NCBI GenBank assembly: GCA_963663275.1
Contig: OY760183.1
Coordinates: 1-64,000 of the forward strand
Direction of reading: 5' to 3'
Source: Chloroflexota bacterium
GTDB lineage: Bacteria > Chloroflexota > UBA11872 > VXOZ01
DNA length: 64,000 nt
In this document: one piece after another, positions 5,572 to 36,765 of the stretch
How positions within the stretch are numbered: position 1 is the stretch's first letter
Layout: every line of letters starts with the position of its first letter
The notes under the pieces: generated by a model
The model's database searches: none
What the model was told of the DNA's origin: nothing
The model's input: the letters and a program-made list of their open reading frames with translations, nothing else
Translations under genes and position numbers: made by a program

Positions 5572-6207
5572 CTAGCTCCTCCATTTCGCAGGCTTCCTGA
5601 TGGCGCCGTGCGCATCCGTCAAAGTATCTGGAAACTGGCACTCTCGCAAGTGACGGGGCCGCAGTCTCCTGACGTAGGTTGCTGCGATTTCCAGTGACCG
5701 ATGCGTCCTGGTCTTGTTATCTGGATTGACTACAGCAACGTGAAGACCTAAGTCATCCCGCACGTACTGAATTGCGCTGCTAAAGTCAGAGTCGTTGGAC
5801 ACAACGACAGCCTTCTCATACGCCTGGTTAAATCCATCAACCAGAAGCCTCGTCACAAGGTTTACGTCCGTTCCCTTCTCTTCCGTATGCTTGACCTGAA
5901 CATAGTCCGGCATTCCCTCAATGGGAAATGCCAACGGACGCGACTTAGTCCGTGTTCGGAACGTACCGAAGTGGGCTTCAAATCCCGGCAGCGTTGCCAG
6001 CGCCCTCAGGTAGATCAGTTGCCGCCGAACTTGCCCTGGATCGTGAGACCGTTGGTTAATTTTGCTGGTAAAGTAGCAGATCCGACTAATGGTATCTTCC
6101 GGGAAGAGCGCTTCAGCCAGCTTTCGCAAGTCGAGCCACTTGAAGGGAGTACCCTTGATTGCACGGAAATAGAGATTCAGTCCGTCAACATATACATTCG
6201 TCTTCAT
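5572..6207 (-). CDS. NYN domain (PIN-like, LabA/DUF88) ribonuclease
   Basis: VYVDGLNLY, EEKGTDVNL, VVSNDSDF acidic motifs; visibly lower GC than flanks. Confidence 0.92.
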   Translation of the reverse strand: MKTNVYVDGLNLYFRAIKGTPFKWLDLRKLAEALFPEDTISRICYFTSKINQRSHDPGQVRRQLIYLRALATLPGFEAHFGTFRTRTKSRPLAFPIEGMPDYVQVKHTEEKGTDVNLVTRLLVDGFNQAYEKAVVVSNDSDFSSAIQYVRDDLGLHVAVVNPDNKTRTHRSLEIAATYVRRLRPRHLRECQFPDTLTDAHGAIRKPAKWRS

Positions 6208-6228
6208 CAGTTGCCCTGCCGGTTTGCC

Positions 6229-6292
6229 AAAAGAACAGAGGCCACCCAATGGGTGGCCTCAACCCTGCCAGCGAAGTGAACAGGGGCTGTAC
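6229..6292 (-). ncRNA. candidate short leader RNA with intrinsic terminator upstream of the NYN gene
   Basis: CCCTG/CAGGG stem, then perfect 10-bp stem GAGGCCACCC-ATT-GGGTGGCCTC (6238-6260) plus TGTTCTTTT; hairpin ends 30 nt before the ATG. Confidence 0.55.
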
Positions 6293-6296
6293 CGGC

Positions 6297-6326
6297 ATAC
6301 TACCACCCGTAGAACCTGCCAGTCAA
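6297..6326 (-). promoter_or_regulatory. sigma70-type promoter for the NYN unit
   Basis: TTGACT-18 nt-TAGTAT with TG extension. Confidence 0.6.
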
Positions 6327-6379
6327 GCGTTGCGCTGCTCCGCCGTTGTCATTCCAGGTCTCTGCTCGCCCGGCTCCCG

Positions 6380-7342
6380 CTAGTTCCCCTCTTTCGTCAC
6401 CACGTCGATCAGCGCCTGGATGTAGCCGTTCGCAAACGCCCGGCCCTGGTGGCCCCAGGCGGAATCGCCGTCGGTTTGCGGCACGTGGTCGTCGATGAAG
6501 AAGCCGTCGAACCCCACCTCGTGGTAGATCTGCATCGCCTTGTGCATGTCCACGTAGCCGGTGTTGATGAACTCCTCCTGGAACTTGGGCACGGGGCTCG
6601 AGACGTTGCGGAAGTGCACGTAGAGGATCTTCTTGCGCTCGCCGAAGTAGCGGATCATCTCATAGATGTCCTCGCCCCGCATCTCGGCAAACGTGCCCTG
6701 GCAGAACTCCACGGCGTTGCACTCGGACGGGTAGATCTCGATCAGGCGCTTATACGAGTCGAAGTTGCGGAAGAGCAGGGGAATGCCGCCGAGCCGCTCC
6801 ATCGGCGGGTCACAGGGATGGATGCCGAGGCGGATGCCCTCTTCCTCGGCGATGGGCGTGATGAGCTTGATCCAGTATTCCAGGTTCGCCCACACCTCTT
6901 CTTCGGTGTACTCGCGGCCATGCGAGAGCGGCCTCTGCTCGGCCTCCGCGTAATCGAACGCCGTAGCCACCGCGCCGCAGCGAATCTCCGCCGGCGTGGT
7001 GCGCCAGACGTGCGACGGCATCCAGTGATACCCAAAGATGGGAATGCCCGCCCGCGCCATGTTGCGGATTGTGGCGACCATGTTCTCGATTTGCTCGTCG
7101 CGGCGCGGCCCGCCCAGCATCACGTGGTCGTAGAATTCTACCGGCACGTTCTCCAGGGCCGTGAGTTTCAGCCCGTACTCTTCAACGGTCTTGCGCAACT
7201 TCACCAGGTCGTCAAGCTCCCACCGCCCGTTATCCCCCGGCAAATTCGCCGTATTCAACAGCACGTCCGTCGCGCCGTACTGCGCGGCGAATTGCAAGTA
7301 CTCCGGCAACGGGTCGCGAAATTGGCCGAATCCTACGCGCAT
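6380..7342 (-). CDS. mannonate dehydratase (UxuA-like)
   Basis: LGIHPCDPP, EFCQGT, YVHFRNV, IDDHVP, AFANGYI. Confidence 0.85.
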   Translation of the reverse strand: MRVGFGQFRDPLPEYLQFAAQYGATDVLLNTANLPGDNGRWELDDLVKLRKTVEEYGLKLTALENVPVEFYDHVMLGGPRRDEQIENMVATIRNMARAGIPIFGYHWMPSHVWRTTPAEIRCGAVATAFDYAEAEQRPLSHGREYTEEEVWANLEYWIKLITPIAEEEGIRLGIHPCDPPMERLGGIPLLFRNFDSYKRLIEIYPSECNAVEFCQGTFAEMRGEDIYEMIRYFGERKKILYVHFRNVSSPVPKFQEEFINTGYVDMHKAMQIYHEVGFDGFFIDDHVPQTDGDSAWGHQGRAFANGYIQALIDVVTKEGN

Positions 7343-28501: not shown

Positions 28502-29544
28502 TCGGCCACCTTATTCGTCTCACCGTTTGGGAGTGGCACAAACTCCGCCGCCGGACGCTGCCGTGGGTCTTGCTGGCAATCGTCGTCATTCTGATGCAGG
28601 CGGCCGTGTGGGGCGCGTACGTCGTGCACCGCACCGAACCCTTCTCCCCCAATTTCAGCTTCGCCACGTCCGATGAAGTCGAAGGCGAAGAGGTGACGCA
28701 GTTCGCGGCGGACTGGACGTGCAAGGACGTGCGCGGCGACCGCATCCCGCCGGAAGTCGAGGAGCTTGAGGAAGAACTGCGCGAACGGGCGCTCGCGAGC
28801 GTCGAAGAGTTTCGCGAAAATTGCCTGGGCTATGAGGAAGTGTATCAACTCACCGGCAACGTGGTCCTGCTGCCGAACAGCATTCTGTTGGGCTTCACAC
28901 TGCTGCAAGGCACCATGTTCATCCTCGTCAGCATCCTGGCCGCGGCGTCGTTGGGCGGCGAATACGGCTGGGGCACGCTGCGGACGGTGCTGACCCGGGG
29001 CGCGGGCCGCTGGCAGTTTCTGACCGCCAAACTCGCGGCGCTCATGCTCATGGCGCTCACCGGGCTGGTGATTGCCGCCGCCGCGGTGGCGCTGAGCAGC
29101 CTCGCCATCGGCCTCTTCGGCCTGGAAGGCGAGTTGGTGCAACGCTCGGCGGAATGGCTCGACGTGCCGCTGAAGACGGGCATGTTGCTCTATAGCTTCC
29201 TGCCCTACGTCATGCTGGCGCTGCTGGCCACCGCCTTGACCTCGTCTACGGCCGCGGGCATCACCGCCTTCGTGGTCTATTACTTCGTCGAGACGACGCT
29301 CAAGCCCGTGCTCGAGAACTTCGACTGGTTCGAGCGCGTTTCCCAGTATCTGATCAGCACGAACGTCACGACCGTGCTGCAAACGAGCGCCGGTGAGGTG
29401 TCCATTTCTGTCAACGCCGGCGAGCCGGCAGAAACCGGTATGCTCCACGCCGTGCTGGTCCTGGCGGCCTACACGCTCGTCTTCGGCGTAGCCGCGTTCT
29501 GGCTCTTCCAACGCCGGGACATCACCGGCGCGAGAGGCGGCTAA
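28498..29544 (+). CDS. ABC-2 type permease
   Basis: EYGWGTLRTVLTRG, multiple TM segments, C-terminal FQRRDI. Confidence 0.9.
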   Translation: MIGHLIRLTVWEWHKLRRRTLPWVLLAIVVILMQAAVWGAYVVHRTEPFSPNFSFATSDEVEGEEVTQFAADWTCKDVRGDRIPPEVEELEEELRERALASVEEFRENCLGYEEVYQLTGNVVLLPNSILLGFTLLQGTMFILVSILAAASLGGEYGWGTLRTVLTRGAGRWQFLTAKLAALMLMALTGLVIAAAAVALSSLAIGLFGLEGELVQRSAEWLDVPLKTGMLLYSFLPYVMLALLATALTSSTAAGITAFVVYYFVETTLKPVLENFDWFERVSQYLISTNVTTVLQTSAGEVSISVNAGEPAETGMLHAVLVLAAYTLVFGVAAFWLFQRRDITGARGG

Positions 29545-29694
29545 GCGGCAACGGCTCACCTTTGCGCCGGATTAGGGCAAGTCTGGAAAAGTCAGCGGGG
29601 CAGGCCGGAATCCTCCGGTAGGCAGAGGCAGGCCTGCCCCCTCCGGTAGCGCAGGTTTGCAACCTGCGCTCCGCTGTCTATACACGCGCATGAA

Positions 29695-29787
29695 CGGAAC
29701 ACCGTTCCGCGCCAATGCGAGATTGCTTCTGGCGCGGTTCAGCCATTCCCTGGGGTCATCCGGCGGAAAGCGTTCGCGCGGCGTCAT
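29695..29787 (-). pseudogene. truncated HEPN-domain gene
   Basis: MTPRERFPPDDPREWLNRARSNLALA is a typical HEPN N-terminus, overlaps the MNT 3' end and breaks off just before a REP. Confidence 0.65.
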
Positions 29788-30091
29788 ACACCACCCTTCC
29801 TTCCGCCAGCGCCGGCTTGATTACCAGCGCGTGACTGTCCTTATACCGTTCCACCTCCGCCGGAGAGACCATAACGGCGTCTACCGCCGCGCCGACGCCG
29901 TGCAGCGTGCGGTAGATCCGTCCAACCAGTTCGCGCGAGTGGCCTCCCTCGCGCACGATCAGCAAATCCACGTCGCTGTGAGGCCCCATGTCACCGCGCG
30001 CCGCCGAGCCGAACAGGATGATCTTCTCCGGGTGCGCCGTCTCGACGATTCTATCGATGATGTCTTCCAGGATTTCCGGCTCAAGCGTCAT
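29756..30091 (-). CDS. minimal nucleotidyltransferase domain protein
   Basis: PEKIILFGSAARGDMGPHSDVDLLIV, EGRVVY. Confidence 0.9.
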   Translation of the reverse strand: MTLEPEILEDIIDRIVETAHPEKIILFGSAARGDMGPHSDVDLLIVREGGHSRELVGRIYRTLHGVGAAVDAVMVSPAEVERYKDSHALVIKPALAEGRVVYDAARTLSAG

Positions 30092-30578
30092 GCGGCGCTC
30101 CCGCTCCAAGCAGTCGGGCGTTGGTCAACACGATCAGGATGCCAGCAACATACCACGCCGGGGGGCTTGAGCCAAATGGCTCGGATTGGGGTGGCGCCAG
30201 GCCCTTTGGGCGCAGCCGGTTCAACGCAAACGCTCGCACTAATGCATGAGCAGGTTTGCAACCTGCGCTCCGCTGTCTTGCGCGCCGGCGGGCCAAGCCG
30301 GAATTCCCTGCTGAGGATCGCCTATCTCTCCAATTGCCGTAAGTTCAATAGACCGTCCGGCTCGGTGTTTCCCATCAGGACGTGCGCTAAACCGTCGTTC
30401 TCCGTGACGCCGTTGCTCCGCGCGGTTGGGCAAACCGGCAACCGTAGGCCATATAATGGAAGCACGTCTCTGGACTTGGGAGGGACGGGTATTAGCGTGC
30501 AGGCCCTCTGGCGCGATGGCCGCAGCCGGCCCGTTTTCGCAGAACCGGGCGGGGCCTTTGGGAAGAAGACGATCGCCA

Positions 30579-31916
30579 ATGGCAGACGTTCTCCAAACTA
30601 TCAACAGGCTCAAGTCGGAACTGGACGGCCTGCGCCCATTGCCGCCCGACGTTCTTGCCCAGGTAGAGCAGAAGTTGCGGCTCGAGTCGAACTACAACTC
30701 CAACGCCATCGAGGGCAACACGCTGACCCTCAGCGAGACCCGCAGCCTCATCCTGCACGGGCTCACCGCTCACGGGAAGCCGCTGCGCGACCACTTGGAC
30801 ATTGAGGGACACGACAGCGCGGTCAAGGGAATCGAGGCTGCGGTCAAAGAAGATCAAGCGCTCAACGAGGTCTTCATCCGCAATCTTCACCGGGTATTGC
30901 TCAAGGAACCCTACGCAACCAAGGCGGAGACGCCGGATGGGCGGTTGGTCGAGCGCACGATTTCACTCGGCGACTACAAGACTACGCCCAACAACGTGAG
31001 AACTTCGACCGGAGAGACGTACTACTTCACGCCGCCGGAGCAAGTGAAGCAGTCGATGACCGACCTTATCGACTGGTATCGCGCACGAGAGCGTGGCGGC
31101 GAACATCCCATCGTCATTGCCGCCACCTTCCACTATCGCTTCGTGCGCATTCATCCGTTCGATGACGGCAACGGCCGCATGGCGCGCCTGTTGATGAACA
31201 TGATCCTCATCAAGCACGGGTACACGGTGGCGATGATTCGACGAGAGCACCGCGACGAGTATCTCGGCAGACTCGAGCAGGTCGATAGAACCGAGGACCT
31301 CACCGCATTCATCAGCTTCATCGCGCGTTGCTGCGAGTATGCGCTCGACCTCTACCTGAAAGCCGCCCGCGGCGAGCCGATCGACGACATCGATGACATC
31401 GACAAAGAGATTGCCCTCTTCAAGCAGTCCCTCGCTTCAGCGCCGGATCAGACGTTTTCCGGCAGGGCGTACGTGGAGTCTGTCTTAAGTCCGTTCTTCG
31501 CATACTGCGCCGGCAGGGTTTGGCGCATTGCGGATGCATTCTCGAGTGTTCGTGCAGAAGTTTCGTTCAATGGCACCGACAGGGAAGGGAAGACGATAAG
31601 GGGCGGCCTGAACCAGGTTTGGATTGATTCGCCTACACCCGGGCCTCTCCAATATCCAAAAGACCTGCCCGAAGATTTGAGCTTACTGTCTACTAGCATT
31701 AGGTTTGACTTGTCCGGTTTCCAGGGAAGGCGGAGAGATGTCGCTCAATTGCGCATTAAAAACTATTCCGACGTGAGCCAAAGCAGGTGGCGCTTATCCG
31801 ATGACCCGCCCAGAGTTGGCTGGGAGCACGAGGGACAGGACTTGGAAGACCTCAAGCGCCACTTCAACCGGTTGTTGCGGGCACTGATGCAAGACCTTGA
31901 ACAGAAGAGATCCTAG
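30579..31916 (+). CDS. Fic family protein (class II type) with C-terminal extension
   Basis: Inhibitory SNAIEGN and catalytic HPFDDGNGRMAR motifs. Confidence 0.92.
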   Translation: MADVLQTINRLKSELDGLRPLPPDVLAQVEQKLRLESNYNSNAIEGNTLTLSETRSLILHGLTAHGKPLRDHLDIEGHDSAVKGIEAAVKEDQALNEVFIRNLHRVLLKEPYATKAETPDGRLVERTISLGDYKTTPNNVRTSTGETYYFTPPEQVKQSMTDLIDWYRARERGGEHPIVIAATFHYRFVRIHPFDDGNGRMARLLMNMILIKHGYTVAMIRREHRDEYLGRLEQVDRTEDLTAFISFIARCCEYALDLYLKAARGEPIDDIDDIDKEIALFKQSLASAPDQTFSGRAYVESVLSPFFAYCAGRVWRIADAFSSVRAEVSFNGTDREGKTIRGGLNQVWIDSPTPGPLQYPKDLPEDLSLLSTSIRFDLSGFQGRRRDVAQLRIKNYSDVSQSRWRLSDDPPRVGWEHEGQDLEDLKRHFNRLLRALMQDLEQKRS

Positions 31917-32104
31917 CCGGAGTCAGAACGTAGCAAAATCAAGTCTTTTGGTTAGGCGCAGGTAACGCGAATCTCTACCGGAGCGAGATTGCTTCCGGCG
32001 TGGTTCAACGCTAACACTCTCCTTGAGAATGAGTGTGCTAGAATCGCACCAAAGTGTCGCCAGCGGTCCCGGTCCGGCGCGCGGCAGCCTGCAAGGGGGA
32101 ACAC

Positions 32105-32488
32105 ATGGCCAAACTGAGCATATTCGTGAGTTTCGAGTTCGACAAAGACAACGACCTCAGGGACAATTTCTACGCCCAGGCCAAAGGCAAGTCACCGCAT
32201 CGGGTGCGCAATTGCTCGCTGAAAGAGGCGTATCCAACCGAGGCATGGAAGAAGAAGGCGAGAGAAGCCATCAAGGCGTGCGACGTGGTCGTCGTCCTGG
32301 TCGGCGAGGACACGCACAACGCGCAAGGCGTCATAGTGGAAACGGACATGGCGCGCAACATGGAGAAGCCGATCATCCAGATCAGGCCGCAGCGCACGAC
32401 ATTCACCGGGCTAAAGCATCTCGAACAGCCAATTGCGTGGCGGTGGAAGACCATCAACGCCAAGCTGGATGAAGTAGCGCCGCGCTAA
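32105..32488 (+). CDS. stand-alone TIR domain protein (ThsB/DUF1863-like)
   Basis: IFVSFEF, AIKACDVVVVLVGEDT, GVIVE (Glu at the catalytic position), KPIIQI; RBS AAGGGGG. Confidence 0.8.
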   Translation: MAKLSIFVSFEFDKDNDLRDNFYAQAKGKSPHRVRNCSLKEAYPTEAWKKKAREAIKACDVVVVLVGEDTHNAQGVIVETDMARNMEKPIIQIRPQRTTFTGLKHLEQPIAWRWKTINAKLDEVAPR

Positions 32489-32537
32489 CGCTGAGCCGCC
32501 CTGCTTCACCGACGCATTGCGGAGAGAGGACTACGTG

Positions 32538-32975
32538 ATGGCGAGCGCAAATCCGGACTTCGAATCCGCCGCCGTACAGACCCATCTCACCATCATGCAG
32601 GACGTGATACAACGCATGGCGGAGAACAGCCGCTCGTGCAAGGTATGGTGCATTACGCTGGTTTCCGCGATCCTTGTCTTGTCAGCGCAGACCGGCGCCG
32701 GGCAGCACGCCTTGATCGCGTTTGCCCCCGCTCTCCTCTTCGCCTCGCTCGACGCCTACTATCTGGCCTTGGAACGCGGCTTCCGCAATGCCTACGACGA
32801 GTTCATAAGCAAACTGCATAGCGGCAAGCTACCTGCCTGCCGCCTCTACGTCGTCGCGCCAAGTGAACCCGCCCGCAAGCTGTTCTGTCACAGCCTGCGA
32901 TCCTTTTCGATCTGGCCCTTTTACCTCATGGTGGCAATCATGGCGATCTTTGCCTGCTGGCTCATTTCTTCTTGA
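32538..32975 (+). CDS. small membrane protein following the TIR gene
   Basis: HLTIMQDVIQRMAENS..CKVW..TL, LDAYYLALERGFR; about three hydrophobic segments; RBS GAGGA. Confidence 0.75.
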   Translation: MASANPDFESAAVQTHLTIMQDVIQRMAENSRSCKVWCITLVSAILVLSAQTGAGQHALIAFAPALLFASLDAYYLALERGFRNAYDEFISKLHSGKLPACRLYVVAPSEPARKLFCHSLRSFSIWPFYLMVAIMAIFACWLISS

Positions 32976-33077
32976 CGCTGCCACGAGCGGAATCTATGCA
33001 GACTTGTCGTAGTGGCCTTATATTGGTGAAATCACAAGGTACTTACCCCTGCGAGAGGCAGCGAAAAGGAGACGCCG

Positions 33078-33518
33078 GTGGCTGAGTCGCTCGATGACAT
33101 CAAGGATCGCTATGAGGCGCTGGACCTGCAATTGGAGGTTGCCGGCGAGGATGCCATAGACCCCTCGTTCTTGCTGGTGTTCCCCTATGAGTACGACGGC
33201 AATCCCGCCGAGATCGTGGTGAAGACCCATGAGTTTACGGCGGTCTGTCCCTGGACCGGCCTGCCGGACACCGGCGAACTGGCGATTTCGTACGTGCCGG
33301 ACGCGCACTGCATCGAGCTCAAATCGCTCAAGTACTACCTGCTCACGTATAGGCAGGTGGGCATCGTGCAGGAACACGCCGCCGGCCGCATTCTGGACGA
33401 CCTCGCGCGGGCGTGCAAACCCCGCACGATGACCGTGCGCCTGGACTATACGCCGCGCGGCGGACTGCACACCGTGGTGACGGCGCGGTATCCGCCAGAA
33501 GACCCTGCCGGAGATTAG
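33078..33518 (+). CDS. queF: 7-cyano-7-deazaguanine reductase (preQ1 synthase)
   Basis: EFTAVCPWTGLPD, IELKSLKYYL, TPRGG. Confidence 0.93.
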   Translation: MAESLDDIKDRYEALDLQLEVAGEDAIDPSFLLVFPYEYDGNPAEIVVKTHEFTAVCPWTGLPDTGELAISYVPDAHCIELKSLKYYLLTYRQVGIVQEHAAGRILDDLARACKPRTMTVRLDYTPRGGLHTVVTARYPPEDPAGD

Positions 33519-33520
33519 CT

Positions 33521-33817
33521 GTAGGGGCGGTCCGCGAACCGCCCCTACGCACCGTTAGGAAGCACGCAGCACGTGACTCCCCACATCTCTGGTGGCGCAA
33601 ATGCGCAACCTGTGACGCTGTAGGGTCAATCCTTTGCTCGCCGTTTGCTGGTCCGGCGGGGGACAAGCCCCCGCGCTACGGGATTGCCTGGCATGGCGTA
33701 GGGACGGTTCGTGAACCAATGCTGTCGCAGTCGTTTGTTCGCCCTCCGGCGGGGGACAAGCCCCCGCGCTACGGGATTGCCTGGCACGGTGTAGGGGCGG
33801 TTCGCGAACCGCCCCTA
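33521..33817. repeat. BIME-like cluster of REP families between convergent genes
   Basis: GTAGGGGCGGT(T/C)CGCGAACCGCCCCTAC at 33521 and 33790; two copies of GCGGGGGACAAGCCCCCGCGCTACGGGATTGCCTGGCA. Confidence 0.85.
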
Positions 33818-33910
33818 CGTGCCGCAAGGCATCGCGCCGCTCCTGATATTCCGCGTCTCCGACGGCGTGGGATTCAATTGCAATCGCTGAAACTTTCGCG
33901 GGTGCGATGC

Positions 33911-34657
33911 TTAGGCCTCTTCCGCGGCGTTCACGCTGGTTGCCGGGTCGCCGCCGAAGATGCCGAACGGATTGAGCGAGCCGGGCGCGTCGTAGACGTC
34001 CATGCGCTCCGTGCGTTTGAGCCAGCCCACCACCAGGTAGGTCAGCGGCGTCGCGACGATTTCGTAGACCGTCTTGGCGATCCACGCCAGTATCATCGCG
34101 CGCAGCACTTCCTGCGCGGGCCAAATTCCGGATAGGCCGAACGCGATGCCGTAGAACATGACCGAATCGACGCCCTGGCCGACGAACGTAGACGAAATAG
34201 TGCGCAGCCATAGGTGGCGGCCGGCCGTGCGGTTCTTGAGCACCACCATCACCATGGCGTTGGCGAACTCGCCGATCAGGTACGCCGTGAAGGAGCCCGC
34301 CAGGATCCAGCCGGTAGTGCCCAGAATGACCACGTAGGCGTCCTGGTTTTCCCAAAAGACGGCGCCGGGGATGATGCCGCCAAGCCAGAAGAAGACGACC
34401 ATGAGCAGGTTGCAGGCGAAACCCAGCCAGATCACGCCGCGCGCCACCCGGAAGCCGTACACCTCGGTCAGCACGTCGCTGATGATGTAGCTCAGCGGGA
34501 AGCAGATGACCGACACGGACACCACGAAACCCGTGCCGCCCAGGAACTCGAACGGCAGGTCGAAGAGCGAGAGCGGCTTGGCGGCAATCACGTTGCTGAC
34601 CAGCAGCACGGTGACCGCTACCGCGGCGATGATGACGAGCTTGCCGGAAAACCGCAT
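33911..34657 (-). CDS. queuosine precursor transporter (YhhQ/VUT family)
   Basis: SNVIAAK, FPLSYIISDVLTEVYG, LWLRTISST, GQGVDS. Confidence 0.92.
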   Translation of the reverse strand: MRFSGKLVIIAAVAVTVLLVSNVIAAKPLSLFDLPFEFLGGTGFVVSVSVICFPLSYIISDVLTEVYGFRVARGVIWLGFACNLLMVVFFWLGGIIPGAVFWENQDAYVVILGTTGWILAGSFTAYLIGEFANAMVMVVLKNRTAGRHLWLRTISSTFVGQGVDSVMFYGIAFGLSGIWPAQEVLRAMILAWIAKTVYEIVATPLTYLVVGWLKRTERMDVYDAPGSLNPFGIFGGDPATSVNAAEEA

Positions 34658-34810
34658 AGTTCTTCTGCCCCTTTCGCGCCGGTGGGTAGGACGTTCCGCA
34701 GTGTCGCAGGCAGTATAGTGCAAGACGCGCCGCCGGTTCAAGGCGCAGCGCGCTAACGCAGGCGCGCGTCCGTTGGCGGGGTCGCGCTTGGCAAAGCGGG
34801 AACGGGCTTA

Positions 34811-35007
34811 GAGCCTGTTTACGATCTGCTTAGGGGAGAGTTTTCAAAGCCGATAAAGACCGTTCGTGCTGAGCACTTCGGCAAGCTCAGTACAGGCCTG
34901 TCGAAGCATGAACGGGCTATTCGCCACCTTTCGGCGGTTCCGTTCACCCTTCGACGCGGTTCAGGGCGAACGGTCCTCGTGCTTACAAGACGATCGTAAA
35001 CAGTCTC
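34811..35007. mobile_element. MITE family D (IS5-family-like, TTA target duplication)
   Basis: TIR GAG(C/A)CTGTTTACGATC 15/16; TTA at 34808-34810 and 35008-35010; internal palindromes. Confidence 0.8.
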
Positions 35008-35157
35008 TTAGGAAAAACGGGGCCGCGCCGGGAAAGCGGCAAAGGCATAGCGGCTTGCCCGCCTCATAGAATCGCGCCGCGCGCGAACGTAGTATGCTGG
35101 AAGGCGCGGGTCGAGCAACGGCGCGCGAATGCCTAGCGAACGCGGGAGGCTGACAAC

Positions 35158-36765
35158 GTGGACATAGATTCCGGCCTGGTCGGACATTGGATGCTGGAAG
35201 AGGATGCCGACGATCGCTCCGGCAGCGGCAATCACGGCCACATCACCGGCGCGGTAACGTTCGCGCCGCCCGTTCCGCTCGGCGGCGGTCCGGGCGCGGC
35301 TCAATTCGACGGGCGCGGCGGTCGCATTACCGTTCCACATAACGAGACACTGGACGTAGGCGCGGGGGATTTCTCAATCGCGGTCTGGGTTAATGCGAAT
35401 CGCGTTACCAAAGATGTGCCCGGCGACATTTTGAGCACGTTCTGCCCGGACACGCGGCGCGGCTTCAACTTCGGCATCCAATCCGCCGCGGGCGTCGGTT
35501 CGTCGCAGTCGAATTGGCGCAACGTCTTCTTTGGCATCGATAACGCTCAGGTGGAGCCGGTGTGGACCAACCACGGCCGGCCCGGCAATGCGGTCTACGC
35601 CATGGCGCTGGCGGTCCATGATGGCGCGCTCTACGCCGGCACGTACGAAGGCGGCGCGGGCGAAACGGGGCACGTCTATCGTTTCGCCGGCGGCGCGGAC
35701 TGGGAAGATTGCGGCGCGCCCGCCGGCTGCAACGCCGTGAGCGCCCTCGCCGAGTACAATGGCGATCTCTACGCGGCGGTGAGTTGCTACCGCGCCCAGG
35801 GCTCGGCGCAACCGAATTCGCCGAACCAACGGCCGGGCGGCAACGTCTACCGCTACGCCGGCGGTACCGAGTGGGTGGACTGCGGCCAACTGGGGAACGC
35901 CACTGACGTTTTCGGCCTGACGGTCTTCAACGGCGAACTCTACGGCTCCGCCATGTACTCGGCGGGCATGTTCCGCTACGCCGGCGGCAAGACCTGGCTG
36001 CCGTGCGGCGACCCAGGCACGCGGGTGGCGGTGCTGGGCGTCTTCCAGGGCGGGCTCTACGCCAGCGGCTACGACGTGGGCGGCGTCTTCCGCTACGAGG
36101 GCGACCAACGCTGGTCTTTTTGCGGCAACGCGGGCGCTTCCACCCAGCTTTACTCGTTTGCCTCCTACCAAGGCCAACTGCATACCGGCGTCTGGCCCAG
36201 CGGCTCCGTCTACCGCACTGAGGACGGCCGCGCGTGGCTCGACTGCGGCCGCCTGGACGAGGAACTGGAAGTGATGGGCATGATGGTCTATAACGGCAAA
36301 CTCTACGCCGGCACGCTGCCCGCCGCTCGCGTCTACCGCTACGACGGTGAGGGGAACTGGGTCTCCACCGGCCAGCTCGACACCACGCCGGACGTGCGCT
36401 ACCGCCGCGCCTGGACGATGGCGGTCTACCAGGGCCGCCTCTTCTGCACGACGCTGCCGTCCGGCAACGTGCTCTCGCTGGAGGCCGGCAGAAACGTCAC
36501 CCACGACCACGCCCTGCCCGCCGGCTGGCATCACCTCGCCGCCGTCCGTGAGGGCGGGCTGCTGCGCCTCTACGTGGACGGCGCGCTGGTAGCAGTGTCC
36601 GCGTCCTTCAACGCCGCCGATTACGACCTCACACTAGAAGAGCCGCTGCAATTCGGCGCCGGCCAAATCGGCCCCTTCAGCGGCAGCCTCTCCGACGTGC
36701 GGCTCTACAACCGGGGGCTGAGCGACACGCAAGTCGCGGCGATCTTTGCAAGACAGCGTATGTGA
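35158..36765 (+). CDS. LamG/concanavalin-like protein with an inserted repeat (beta-propeller-like) region
   Basis: LVGHWML...DRSGSGNHG, FSIAVWV; C-terminal WHHLAAV...LYVDG...DVRLYNRGLS; internal GxLYA...VYRYxG...W.xCG repeats. Confidence 0.75.
   Translation: MDIDSGLVGHWMLEEDADDRSGSGNHGHITGAVTFAPPVPLGGGPGAAQFDGRGGRITVPHNETLDVGAGDFSIAVWVNANRVTKDVPGDILSTFCPDTRRGFNFGIQSAAGVGSSQSNWRNVFFGIDNAQVEPVWTNHGRPGNAVYAMALAVHDGALYAGTYEGGAGETGHVYRFAGGADWEDCGAPAGCNAVSALAEYNGDLYAAVSCYRAQGSAQPNSPNQRPGGNVYRYAGGTEWVDCGQLGNATDVFGLTVFNGELYGSAMYSAGMFRYAGGKTWLPCGDPGTRVAVLGVFQGGLYASGYDVGGVFRYEGDQRWSFCGNAGASTQLYSFASYQGQLHTGVWPSGSVYRTEDGRAWLDCGRLDEELEVMGMMVYNGKLYAGTLPAARVYRYDGEGNWVSTGQLDTTPDVRYRRAWTMAVYQGRLFCTTLPSGNVLSLEAGRNVTHDHALPAGWHHLAAVREGGLLRLYVDGALVAVSASFNAADYDLTLEEPLQFGAGQIGPFSGSLSDVRLYNRGLSDTQVAAIFARQRM

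Follow-up and report, generated by a model that had tools for sequence, protein, structure and literature searches.

We analysed a stretch of 64,000 nucleotides (nt) from a Chloroflexota bacterium (GenBank assembly GCA_963663275.1, contig OY760183.1, positions 1 to 64,000 of the forward strand), called the window below, and focused on two adjacent genes that encode a TIR protein of 127 amino acids (aa) and a membrane protein of 145 aa. In our judgement the pair is fairly probably a Thoeris-like TIR-signalling anti-phage module made of two genes in one operon. By its sequence matches, it is a member of the PADLOC candidate system PDC-M50 with a different and shorter TIR subtype, which the PDC-M50B model barely recognises. 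The coordinates and protein sizes that an earlier note on this DNA had given for the pair (127 aa, 145 aa and a gap of 49 nt) were exact on re-reading. The features of the pair are as follows.

32105..32488, forward strand: thsB-like TIR gene of type 'U130', 127 aa, ATG start.

32538..32975, forward strand: membrane-protein gene, effector candidate, PADLOC family PDC-M50A, 145 aa.

32093..32099, forward strand: Shine-Dalgarno-like purine run 5 nt before the TIR start codon, from sequence inspection.

32521..32529, forward strand: Shine-Dalgarno-like stretch of the GGAG type 8 nt before the membrane-protein start codon, from sequence inspection.

32339..32341, forward strand: codon of Glu79, the putative catalytic glutamate in GVIVE, from alignment.

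The 49 nt extend from the TIR stop codon to the ATG of the membrane gene on the same strand, and the GVIVE motif corresponds to residues 75-79 of the TIR protein. Neither open reading frame (ORF) is a chance product of GC-rich DNA, and both are genuine genes: the TIR passes PF08937, and 1670 of the 1700 candidates scored from the 90% cluster set are relatives of the membrane protein at E<=1e-3.

As judged by alignment, the first gene encodes a ThsB-type TIR with Glu at the catalytic position. The 127-aa protein matched the Pfam family PF08937 ThsB_TIR at 1.7e-8 (35.2 bits vs a cut-off of 21.2), and its sub-threshold Pfam matches were to TIR_2, nucleoside 2-deoxyribosyltransferase (NDT) and SLOG families, all of which share the fold. 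In PADLOC it matched ThsB1 (4.3e-5) and PDC-M50B (2.7e-4); the weak matches to ThsA (STALD) models also came from the TIR protein and not from its membrane partner. We aligned the window TIR with 49 TIR neighbours from related loci, and only F7, S9 and E79 were invariant. The earlier note had read GVIVE as marking a TIR with Glu at the catalytic position, a reading borne out by the PF08937 match above cut-off and by the presence of Glu79 in 50/50 aligned TIRs spanning three families. The profile of this alignment matched EcThsB (8wcf, 8.6e-45) and Bacillus cereus ThsB (6lhy/9b7d, about 7e-22). When it was aligned to 6lhy/9b7d, Glu79 fell on the Glu of the RRWVRYE stretch in BcThsB, residue 85 by count, and E85 is presumably the catalytic residue of BcThsB. 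A literature search on PDB 8WCF did not trace the source system of this EcThsB. The AlphaFold2 (AF2) model of the TIR had a pLDDT of 81.1 and a flavodoxin-like beta-alpha order. Its best Foldseek match was 8fz9, a 136-aa B. cereus TIR (E 1e-6, TM 0.78), followed by ThsB, SPARTA and SARM1 TIRs, and it also matched EcThsB2 (8v6t), the structure of which is reported in the available part of a type II Thoeris paper (PMC11204291).

The second protein has three hydrophobic segments by Kyte-Doolittle analysis (about 36-52, 57-75 and 126-145) that coincide with modelled helices, in agreement with the approximately three segments counted in the earlier note. The AF2 model, built from an alignment of 112 cluster representatives, had a pLDDT of 95.8 and was all-helical. 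Helices 11-52 and 55-95 form a long hairpin, which is followed by a short helix (112-120) and a last helix at 126-144. Residues 76-125, predicted to lie on the side of the cytoplasm, contain 8 Lys+Arg. Two residues, R26 and K35, do not vary among the 112 representatives, and Q21, I24, M27, S31, W37, P64, D72, Y75, L76, E79, F82, S122, F128 and Y129 are conserved in at least 90%. By sequence position, most of these conserved residues fall on helix segments beside the predicted transmembrane (TM) stretches. Pfam and NCBIfam searches gave no family at E<=1, Foldseek of the model against the PDB gave 0 matches at E<=1e-3, and the family profile gave 0 matches at E<=1 against PDB sequences. The earlier note had considered this partner too short to carry SLOG, Macro or SIR2 domains, and none of the three was found by Pfam at E<=1. 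A search with the membrane-family alignment found no fused forms at E<=1e-3 among proteins of 376-2000 aa, which is weak evidence; the range of 254-376 aa was covered by the representative search only. Longer family matches in that search, e.g. P0164 (304 aa) and P0177 (271 aa), carried no extra Pfam domain. A four-copy prediction of the membrane protein scored 0.07 vs a mark of 0.42 with controls not run, and we counted it neither for nor against oligomerisation. As leads only, the ESM Atlas gave unnamed clusters at 0.96, a cluster auto-named 'DUF3278' at 0.92 that has no common Pfam family, and nearest Pfam-carrying clusters at 0.87 with 8xMP on 14-20% of their members. An exhaustive search found 3056 clusters of relatives at 50% identity (718 at 1e-10), nearly all of 140-160 aa.

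The linkage of this membrane family to TIR genes is very strong and spans phyla. With the membrane-protein alignment as query, a scan of one genome per species yielded 312 confirmed matches, the best 80 of which were kept as 79 loci. The immediate same-strand neighbours of the membrane gene belong to one BLAST-linked superfamily with three types, and the representatives of all three matched PF08937 (8e-27 to 5e-17).

U130: about 130 aa, upstream of the membrane gene; the type of the window, 13 loci.

U165: about 165 aa, upstream of the membrane gene; corresponds to PADLOC PDC-M50B.

D190: about 190 aa, downstream of the membrane gene.

Hidden Markov models (HMMs) of the three types detected an adjoining same-strand TIR gene in 70/79 loci. 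In one more locus (L063) a fourth kind of TIR stands beside the membrane gene (PADLOC ThsB PDLC00430, 2e-80), which brings the TIR-adjacent loci to 71/79. The arrangements, with M for the membrane gene, were distributed as follows.

U165-M: 23 loci.

M-D190: 22 loci.

U165-M-D190: 10 loci.

U130-M-D190: 9 loci.

U130-M, as in the window: 4 loci (L001, L019, L021, L066).

Other two-TIR arrangements: 2 loci.

No TIR by the three-type HMMs: 9 loci, or 8 once L063 is counted.

One membrane gene is flanked by TIR genes on both sides in 21/79 loci; several ThsB proteins commonly serve one Thoeris effector. The spacing between TIR and membrane gene in the relatives is often a 4-nt overlap or less than 20 nt. 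Besides Chloroflexota, the sources of the loci include Pseudomonadota (Vibrio, Pseudoalteromonas, Oceanospirillum, Crenobacter), Bacteroidota, Nitrospirota, Planctomycetota, Omnitrophota and Cyanobacteriota, and one archaeal member was found in a Nitrososphaera metagenome-assembled genome (MAG). More distant family members (31-50% identity) are carried by 7 plasmids, where an annotated TIR gene, in some cases a longer canonical TIR, adjoins in 6/7; the seventh match is a fragment beside an IS30 element. The earlier note had named a lack of linkage between membrane homologs and TIR genes as the finding that would speak against its proposal, and what we found was TIR adjacency in 71/79 loci and 6/7 plasmids. 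In phage genomes tblastn gave no match of the membrane protein. A megablast search of complete genomes of Escherichia coli, the species of the TIR-I to TIR-IX systems of PMC11350192, with the pair of a Klebsiella plasmid gave no match either.

Some of these loci deserve a description of their own. On the Vibrio chagasii plasmid p1 (L080, 4968-9179) two membrane/TIR gene pairs lie about 3 kb apart; each pair has a long TIR protein of its own (387 and 243 aa), and PDC-M50A is matched by the small protein of either pair (3e-32 and 5e-48). The Clostridium botulinum plasmid p6CSt (L082, 2140-3384) has a TIR gene and a PDC-M50A-type gene between two recombinase genes, and the same plasmid carries phage terminase genes, which indicates that the TIR-membrane module also travels on phage-plasmid-like elements. 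In an Aminicenantes MAG (L071, 1215-3200) a SIR2-domain gene (PADLOC SIR2 9e-106) begins 92 nt 3' of the TIR-membrane pair; one TIR may here serve two unlike effectors within a single operon. A 201-aa hypothetical gene 3' of a Sulfitobacter TIR pair was found to be unrelated to the membrane family (hhalign probability 0.4).

We then placed the 80 membrane proteins on a quick IQ-TREE maximum-likelihood tree, which is descriptive only since kin share labels. A multi-phylum clade of 22 rows has the U165-M arrangement in 18. The TIR arrangement switches often in the mainly Chloroflexota part of the tree, with 29 changes over 7 labels, and the M-D190 label showed no excess of clustering over shuffled labels. 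These frequent switches suggest that TIR sensors are interchangeable around one effector family. L001, L003 and L004 form a group with the window (SH-aLRT 96), and the terminal branch of its membrane protein is 0.52 vs 0.13 for L001. The three TIR families share 13-27% identity with the window TIR.

The membrane protein matched all four PDC-M50A models, where PADLOC matches were judged by E-value and bits without PADLOC's per-model thresholds. The best was PDLC04686 (1.8e-28, 97.4 bits), with residues 14-140 of the protein aligned to profile positions 6-129 of 134, and the remaining three gave 1.7e-17 to 6.8e-13. The corresponding match of PDC-M50B to the window TIR is weak (2.7e-4 as above, 19.2 bits, profile positions 5-99 of 162) compared to its match to the 165-aa TIR type of the related loci (1e-62 to 1e-67, 208-223 bits). 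The pair thus resembles PDC-M50 in that component A is the membrane-protein family of the window and component B is a TIR-like protein; it differs in its TIR, which is of a shorter and separate subfamily (127 aa vs the 162-position PDC-M50B model). We found no paper that names PDC-M50 in a literature search. These matches bear on two statements of the earlier note. Its inference of an uncharacterised anti-phage system was overstated, in that an unknown kind of system is not supported: the membrane protein belongs to PDC-M50A, and Thoeris types with small membrane effectors that lack a classical sensor domain have been described. It had also asked whether the pair maps fully onto a named system, and this applies to the membrane protein, whereas the TIR matches PDC-M50B only weakly.

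In order to relate the pair to described Thoeris types, we relied mainly on the available part of a preprint from December 2025 (bioRxiv 10.64898/2025.12.03.692087; hereafter the Thoeris preprint), in which defence islands were scanned for TIR operons and 29 putative Thoeris types were proposed, with types V-XI validated. The pair shares the general features of Thoeris, namely a ThsB-type TIR, a catalytic-position Glu by alignment and a same-operon partner with conserved association. The nearest plasmid relatives of the window TIR have 29-43% identity and stand directly 5' of caspase-family genes in 3/4 regions viewed. As far as its available text goes, the Thoeris preprint assigns the layout with a caspase-family effector to type IV and describes one TIR cluster that is common to type I, IV and V (DUF2270) layouts. 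Because its plasmid relatives sit in the type IV layout, the clade of the window TIR appears to serve as a signalling TIR elsewhere. The plasmids with caspase-family genes immediately 3' of window-TIR relatives are those of Rhizobium binae, Bacillus subtilis (pBS72) and Proteus penneri (L088, L089 and L090), and in the last the TIR/caspase pair adjoins a Tn7-like tnsE gene.

By analogy, the closest described system in mechanism would be type V Thoeris. According to the same part of the Thoeris preprint, type V consists of ThsB and ThsF, which belongs to DUF2270 (PF10028) and is predicted to cross the membrane with three helices. The model of ThsF given there is a heptameric channel that has basic pockets between its protomers, and in one system the trigger is 3'cADPR, an isomer of cyclic ADP-ribose (cADPR). 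Both systems have a ThsB-type TIR and a small three-TM effector in a two-gene operon without a classical nucleotide-sensor domain, and both occur in islands with several ThsB proteins, as also described in the Thoeris preprint. They differ in the effector, which has 145 aa in the window vs 184 positions in the DUF2270 profile, and assignment of the window protein to DUF2270 was rejected for lack of a Pfam match at E<=1. DUF2270 is nevertheless the commonest weak Pfam match of the family (13/112 representatives, collinear, best 19.3 bits vs a cut-off of 25), and a distant kinship with it, as judged from these alignments, is plausible. Among 120 listed relatives of P0200, the best DUF2270 scorer, none had a precomputed Pfam domain, and a literature search on DUF2270 and ThsF found no relevant paper beyond the Thoeris preprint.

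Type VII, in the accessible text of the Thoeris preprint, uses ThsH, a SLATT protein triggered by cADPR. As in type VII, the window would combine ThsB with a small helical-hairpin membrane effector that has a positive cytoplasmic face, predicted for ThsH in the available preprint text and deduced here from the Lys+Arg count. The difference is that a SLATT match is found in 1/112 family members and is weak (SLATT_6, E 0.0077, 16.3 bits vs 27.1); the window protein has none at E<=1 and was not accepted as SLATT. It was likewise rejected as a member of 8xMP (PF24838, an octameric membrane protein family), to which it has no match at E<=1. This profile is of similar size (136 positions), and matches occurred in 3/112 representatives (best 18.4 bits vs a cut-off of 30), one of them aligning residues 19-144 to profile positions 8-134 at E 0.002. 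A literature search on 8xMP and PF24838 returned nothing relevant. By curated thresholds and on sequence comparison, the family is outside DUF2270, SLATT and 8xMP. The type I effector ThsA (SIR2-SLOG) was excluded by the lack of a Pfam match at E<=1 in the 145-aa protein. The effector of type II is a TM-Macro protein according to the part of the Thoeris preprint at hand, and it was excluded since the window protein has no Macro match, an all-helical model and 145 aa. Type II, the effector of which is named ThsA-TM-macro or ThsC, resembles the proposed system in that a membrane-spanning effector, once switched on by a TIR signal, kills via the membrane, as described in the available part of PMC11204291, and the linked 165-aa TIR type is near EcThsB (8wcf, 8.6e-45). 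It differs in that the window effector lacks a Macro or other soluble ligand-binding domain and has three TM helices.

From the observed domains, residues, fold, operon, linkage and context, we infer the biochemical steps of a mechanism. The 127-aa TIR would be both sensor of infection and enzyme, and it would convert NAD+, in a Glu79-dependent reaction expected from its family, to an ADP-ribose-derived messenger, e.g. a cADPR isomer. The 145-aa protein would be the effector, with a predicted topology of a cytoplasmic N-terminus, a TM1-TM2 hairpin and a third TM at the C-terminus. Its cytoplasmic hairpin extensions would carry the conserved polar cluster R26, K35, D72, Y75 and E79. The messenger may bind at this juxtamembrane cluster, probably between protomers of an oligomer, and the effector would then switch to a membrane-breaching or ion-conducting state by which the infected cell is stopped (abortive infection). 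A more far-reaching proposal, which we make tentatively and hold to be possible rather than probable, is that PDC-M50A is a Thoeris effector class of its own, neither DUF2270/ThsF nor SLATT. It would be a three-helix protein of about 145 residues without curated or solved relatives, which reads a TIR-made nucleotide via a juxtamembrane Arg/Lys/Asp/Glu cluster without a sensor domain and is driven interchangeably by at least three unrelated ThsB families. This would constitute a further Thoeris type, the main one in Chloroflexota, possibly with an undescribed messenger.

Several observations weigh against a Thoeris-like module. The membrane protein has no recognisable nucleotide-binding domain, and its ligand site is deduced from conserved charged residues alone. 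The PDC-x entries are termed 'unpublished candidate systems' in the available part of PMC11811056. The 79 loci represent the closest relatives, 57 from Chloroflexota alone, and are therefore not independent samples. Defence genes nearby speak for the module, with the SoFic-like gene directly 5' of the pair in the window and matches to PADLOC models at E<=1e-8 for 14/25 flanking non-TIR genes sampled from other loci (11 had none), but this count has no control set and PADLOC includes generic models; the matching genes include AbiEii, type I and II methyltransferases, RT_UG29, SIR2, AriAB-like and PtuA-like ATPases, PDC-S18 and PDC-M24B. In 8/79 loci (L015, L020, L022 at a contig end, L034, L035, L040, L043 and L050) the membrane gene has no detectable TIR neighbour, so it can persist alone. 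In four of these (L015, L040, L043 and L050, all Dehalococcoidia MAGs) it lies near 5900-6480 and follows immediately on an MFS transporter gene, and no TIR could be detected over 12 kb; these effectors either are orphans or rely on a TIR from another part of the genome. The TIR model also matched MilB, a CMP N-glycosidase, and NDT enzymes by Foldseek at 6e-5, vs 6.5e-5 for ThsB, and since these E-values are similar the fold alone does not fix the chemistry of the window TIR. Together with the sub-threshold NDT matches in Pfam and with QueF and Vut_1 immediately 3' of the pair, this would fit a non-defence role, in which a TIR-like NDT or N-glycosidase enzyme and a membrane protein take part in metabolite salvage. 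We give such a role hardly any probability, given that the NDT matches stay below their cut-offs while ThsB_TIR exceeds its own and that neighbours in other loci are largely defence genes. The specific version, queuosine salvage, was rejected because adjacency to QueF/Vut_1 is limited to 1/79 loci, the syntenic L001. In 9/13 loci the short TIR is joined by a 190-aa TIR downstream, which is missing from the window, and for this reason the pair could be a reduced form. Such a loss from an ancestral three-gene form may have left a decayed or incomplete module that is inactive or reliant on a TIR elsewhere, for which the long terminal branch of the window membrane protein and the truncated HEPN-like ORF and repeat scars nearby could be taken as further signs. 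Decay is nonetheless quite unlikely, as each ORF is unbroken and preceded by a ribosome-binding site, the window protein retains the residues that are invariant or nearly so, and the same two-gene form is found in four other loci.

The roles of the two proteins may also be assigned differently. The TIR could be an NAD+-depleting killer and the membrane protein a sensor, anchor or regulator that responds to membrane perturbation or phage entry. TIR effectors of CBASS, Pycsar and TIR-pAgo work in this manner. The Glu at the catalytic position and the absence of an extra domain for obvious phage sensing in the 127-aa TIR are compatible with such reversed roles, as is the description of TIRs as NADase effectors in other systems in the available part of the Thoeris preprint. 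We consider this assignment unlikely. The TIRs fall in ThsB families (PF08937, PADLOC ThsB1), which are signal producers in the studied Thoeris types, and the two TIRs per membrane gene in 21/79 loci are better explained by several sensors that share one effector than by one sensor with two effectors. Wherever that part of the Thoeris preprint cites a studied signalling system, moreover, the small multi-TM protein is the effector. The earlier note had left room for gating by direct contact. A contact-gated pair of toxin-antitoxin type would bind mutually, one protein keeping the other inactive, until infection breaks the complex, with no small-molecule messenger. Tight gene coupling, here and in the relatives with their overlaps and short gaps, and toxin-antitoxin-like genes (MNT, Fic) in the islet would be in line with this. 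However, nothing that we found favours contact gating and it seems distinctly improbable, since one conserved effector family occurs with three TIR families of low identity to the window TIR and with longer plasmid TIRs, and a specific interface would be hard to keep over frequent partner swaps on the tree. The invariant catalytic-position Glu in turn argues that enzymatic activity matters. Because three TIR families swap freely around one effector family, coupling by a diffusible small molecule, as in a Thoeris-like module, would fit better than a specific interface.

If the Thoeris-like reading is true, the 127-aa enzyme and the 145-aa membrane protein would be among the smallest signal-gated killing devices known, and the question would be how nucleotide recognition leads to membrane damage in a protein with almost no soluble part. 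TIR signalling immunity would be extended into Chloroflexota and Dehalococcoidia; sequenced genomes over-represent Pseudomonadota and Bacillota according to the available part of the Thoeris preprint. Validation of a single member would give an annotation to thousands of 'hypothetical proteins', since the family is large and is covered neither by Pfam nor by a solved structure. Three interchangeable TIR families around one effector would further offer a natural experiment on the messengers of ThsB clades. Since Thoeris was expanded in 2025 the general idea has lost its surprise, but the family is still very large, structurally unassigned and confidently folded.

The pair is located in a lower-GC islet (GC 0.54-0.60 at about 30.6-33.2 kb vs 0.64-0.69 on both sides) between an ABC-2 transporter and QueF/Vut_1. 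The islet also holds the following genes.

30426..31916, forward strand: Fic-domain gene, SoFic-like (Pfam Fic PF02661 1.8e-21; PADLOC SoFic 5.5e-33, PDC-S04 6e-33).

29756..30109, reverse strand: MNT-type nucleotidyltransferase, antitoxin-like (NTP_transf_2 PF01909 1.8e-11, Polbeta 2.7e-10, PADLOC PDC-S09 3.3e-10).

29572..29787, reverse strand: 70-aa ORF overlapping the end of the MNT gene, candidate truncated HEPN remnant.

The true start of the Fic gene is probably an ATG near 30582. The earlier note had described a patch of Fic and MNT/HEPN genes. Its Fic and MNT parts were confirmed by Pfam and PADLOC, while in place of HEPN there is only the 70-aa ORF, which has no Pfam match at E<=0.01 and no PADLOC match at E<=1e-3. 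This ORF has about 29 plausible codons and then runs into the left copy of a hairpin-containing repeat; the presumed HEPN appears truncated because of this early entry into the repeat. It is probably a truncated HEPN remnant, although its identity as HEPN is only presumed. A scan of 31700-33200 for promoters and terminators was uninformative (1 promoter-like site vs 0.6 expected, 0 terminators vs 0.9 expected). An Rfam scan of 29400-35200 gave a single small-RNA match far below threshold, and no tRNA was found within 10 kb of the pair. Immediately 3' of the pair are QueF (PF14489 3e-26) and Vut_1 (3.5e-47), the latter of the queuosine-precursor transporter type. The only syntenic genome among the 79 loci, L001 (CAXXVD010000002.1, 400-12435), has the pair in the same gap between ABC-2 and QueF; in place of the Fic gene of the window it carries an HD-domain gene, a DarG-like ORF and a gene for a peroxidase-domain protein (PF00141) of 710 aa. 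As L001 shares the pair but not the accessory genes, this gap is a variable insertion spot.

Repeats were found at several places around the islet. A perfect 29-nt direct repeat with a short hairpin brackets the MNT gene (29651-29679 and 30250-30278). Just 5' of the TIR gene, a 37-nt stretch (31983-32019) equals a join of 29717-29741 and 30218-30235, with 92% and 89% identity, respectively. The joined segments flank the MNT gene about 2 kb away, and the same 6-nt motif is present at both junctions. The stretch looks like a scar of a second MNT/HEPN-type module minus its MNT gene, or a recombination site common to islet cassettes. The gap between QueF and Vut_1 (33520-33870) contains 28-nt GC-rich palindromes at 33521-33548 and 33791-33818 as well as 66-nt direct repeats at 33652-33717 and 33745-33810 that are 94% identical.

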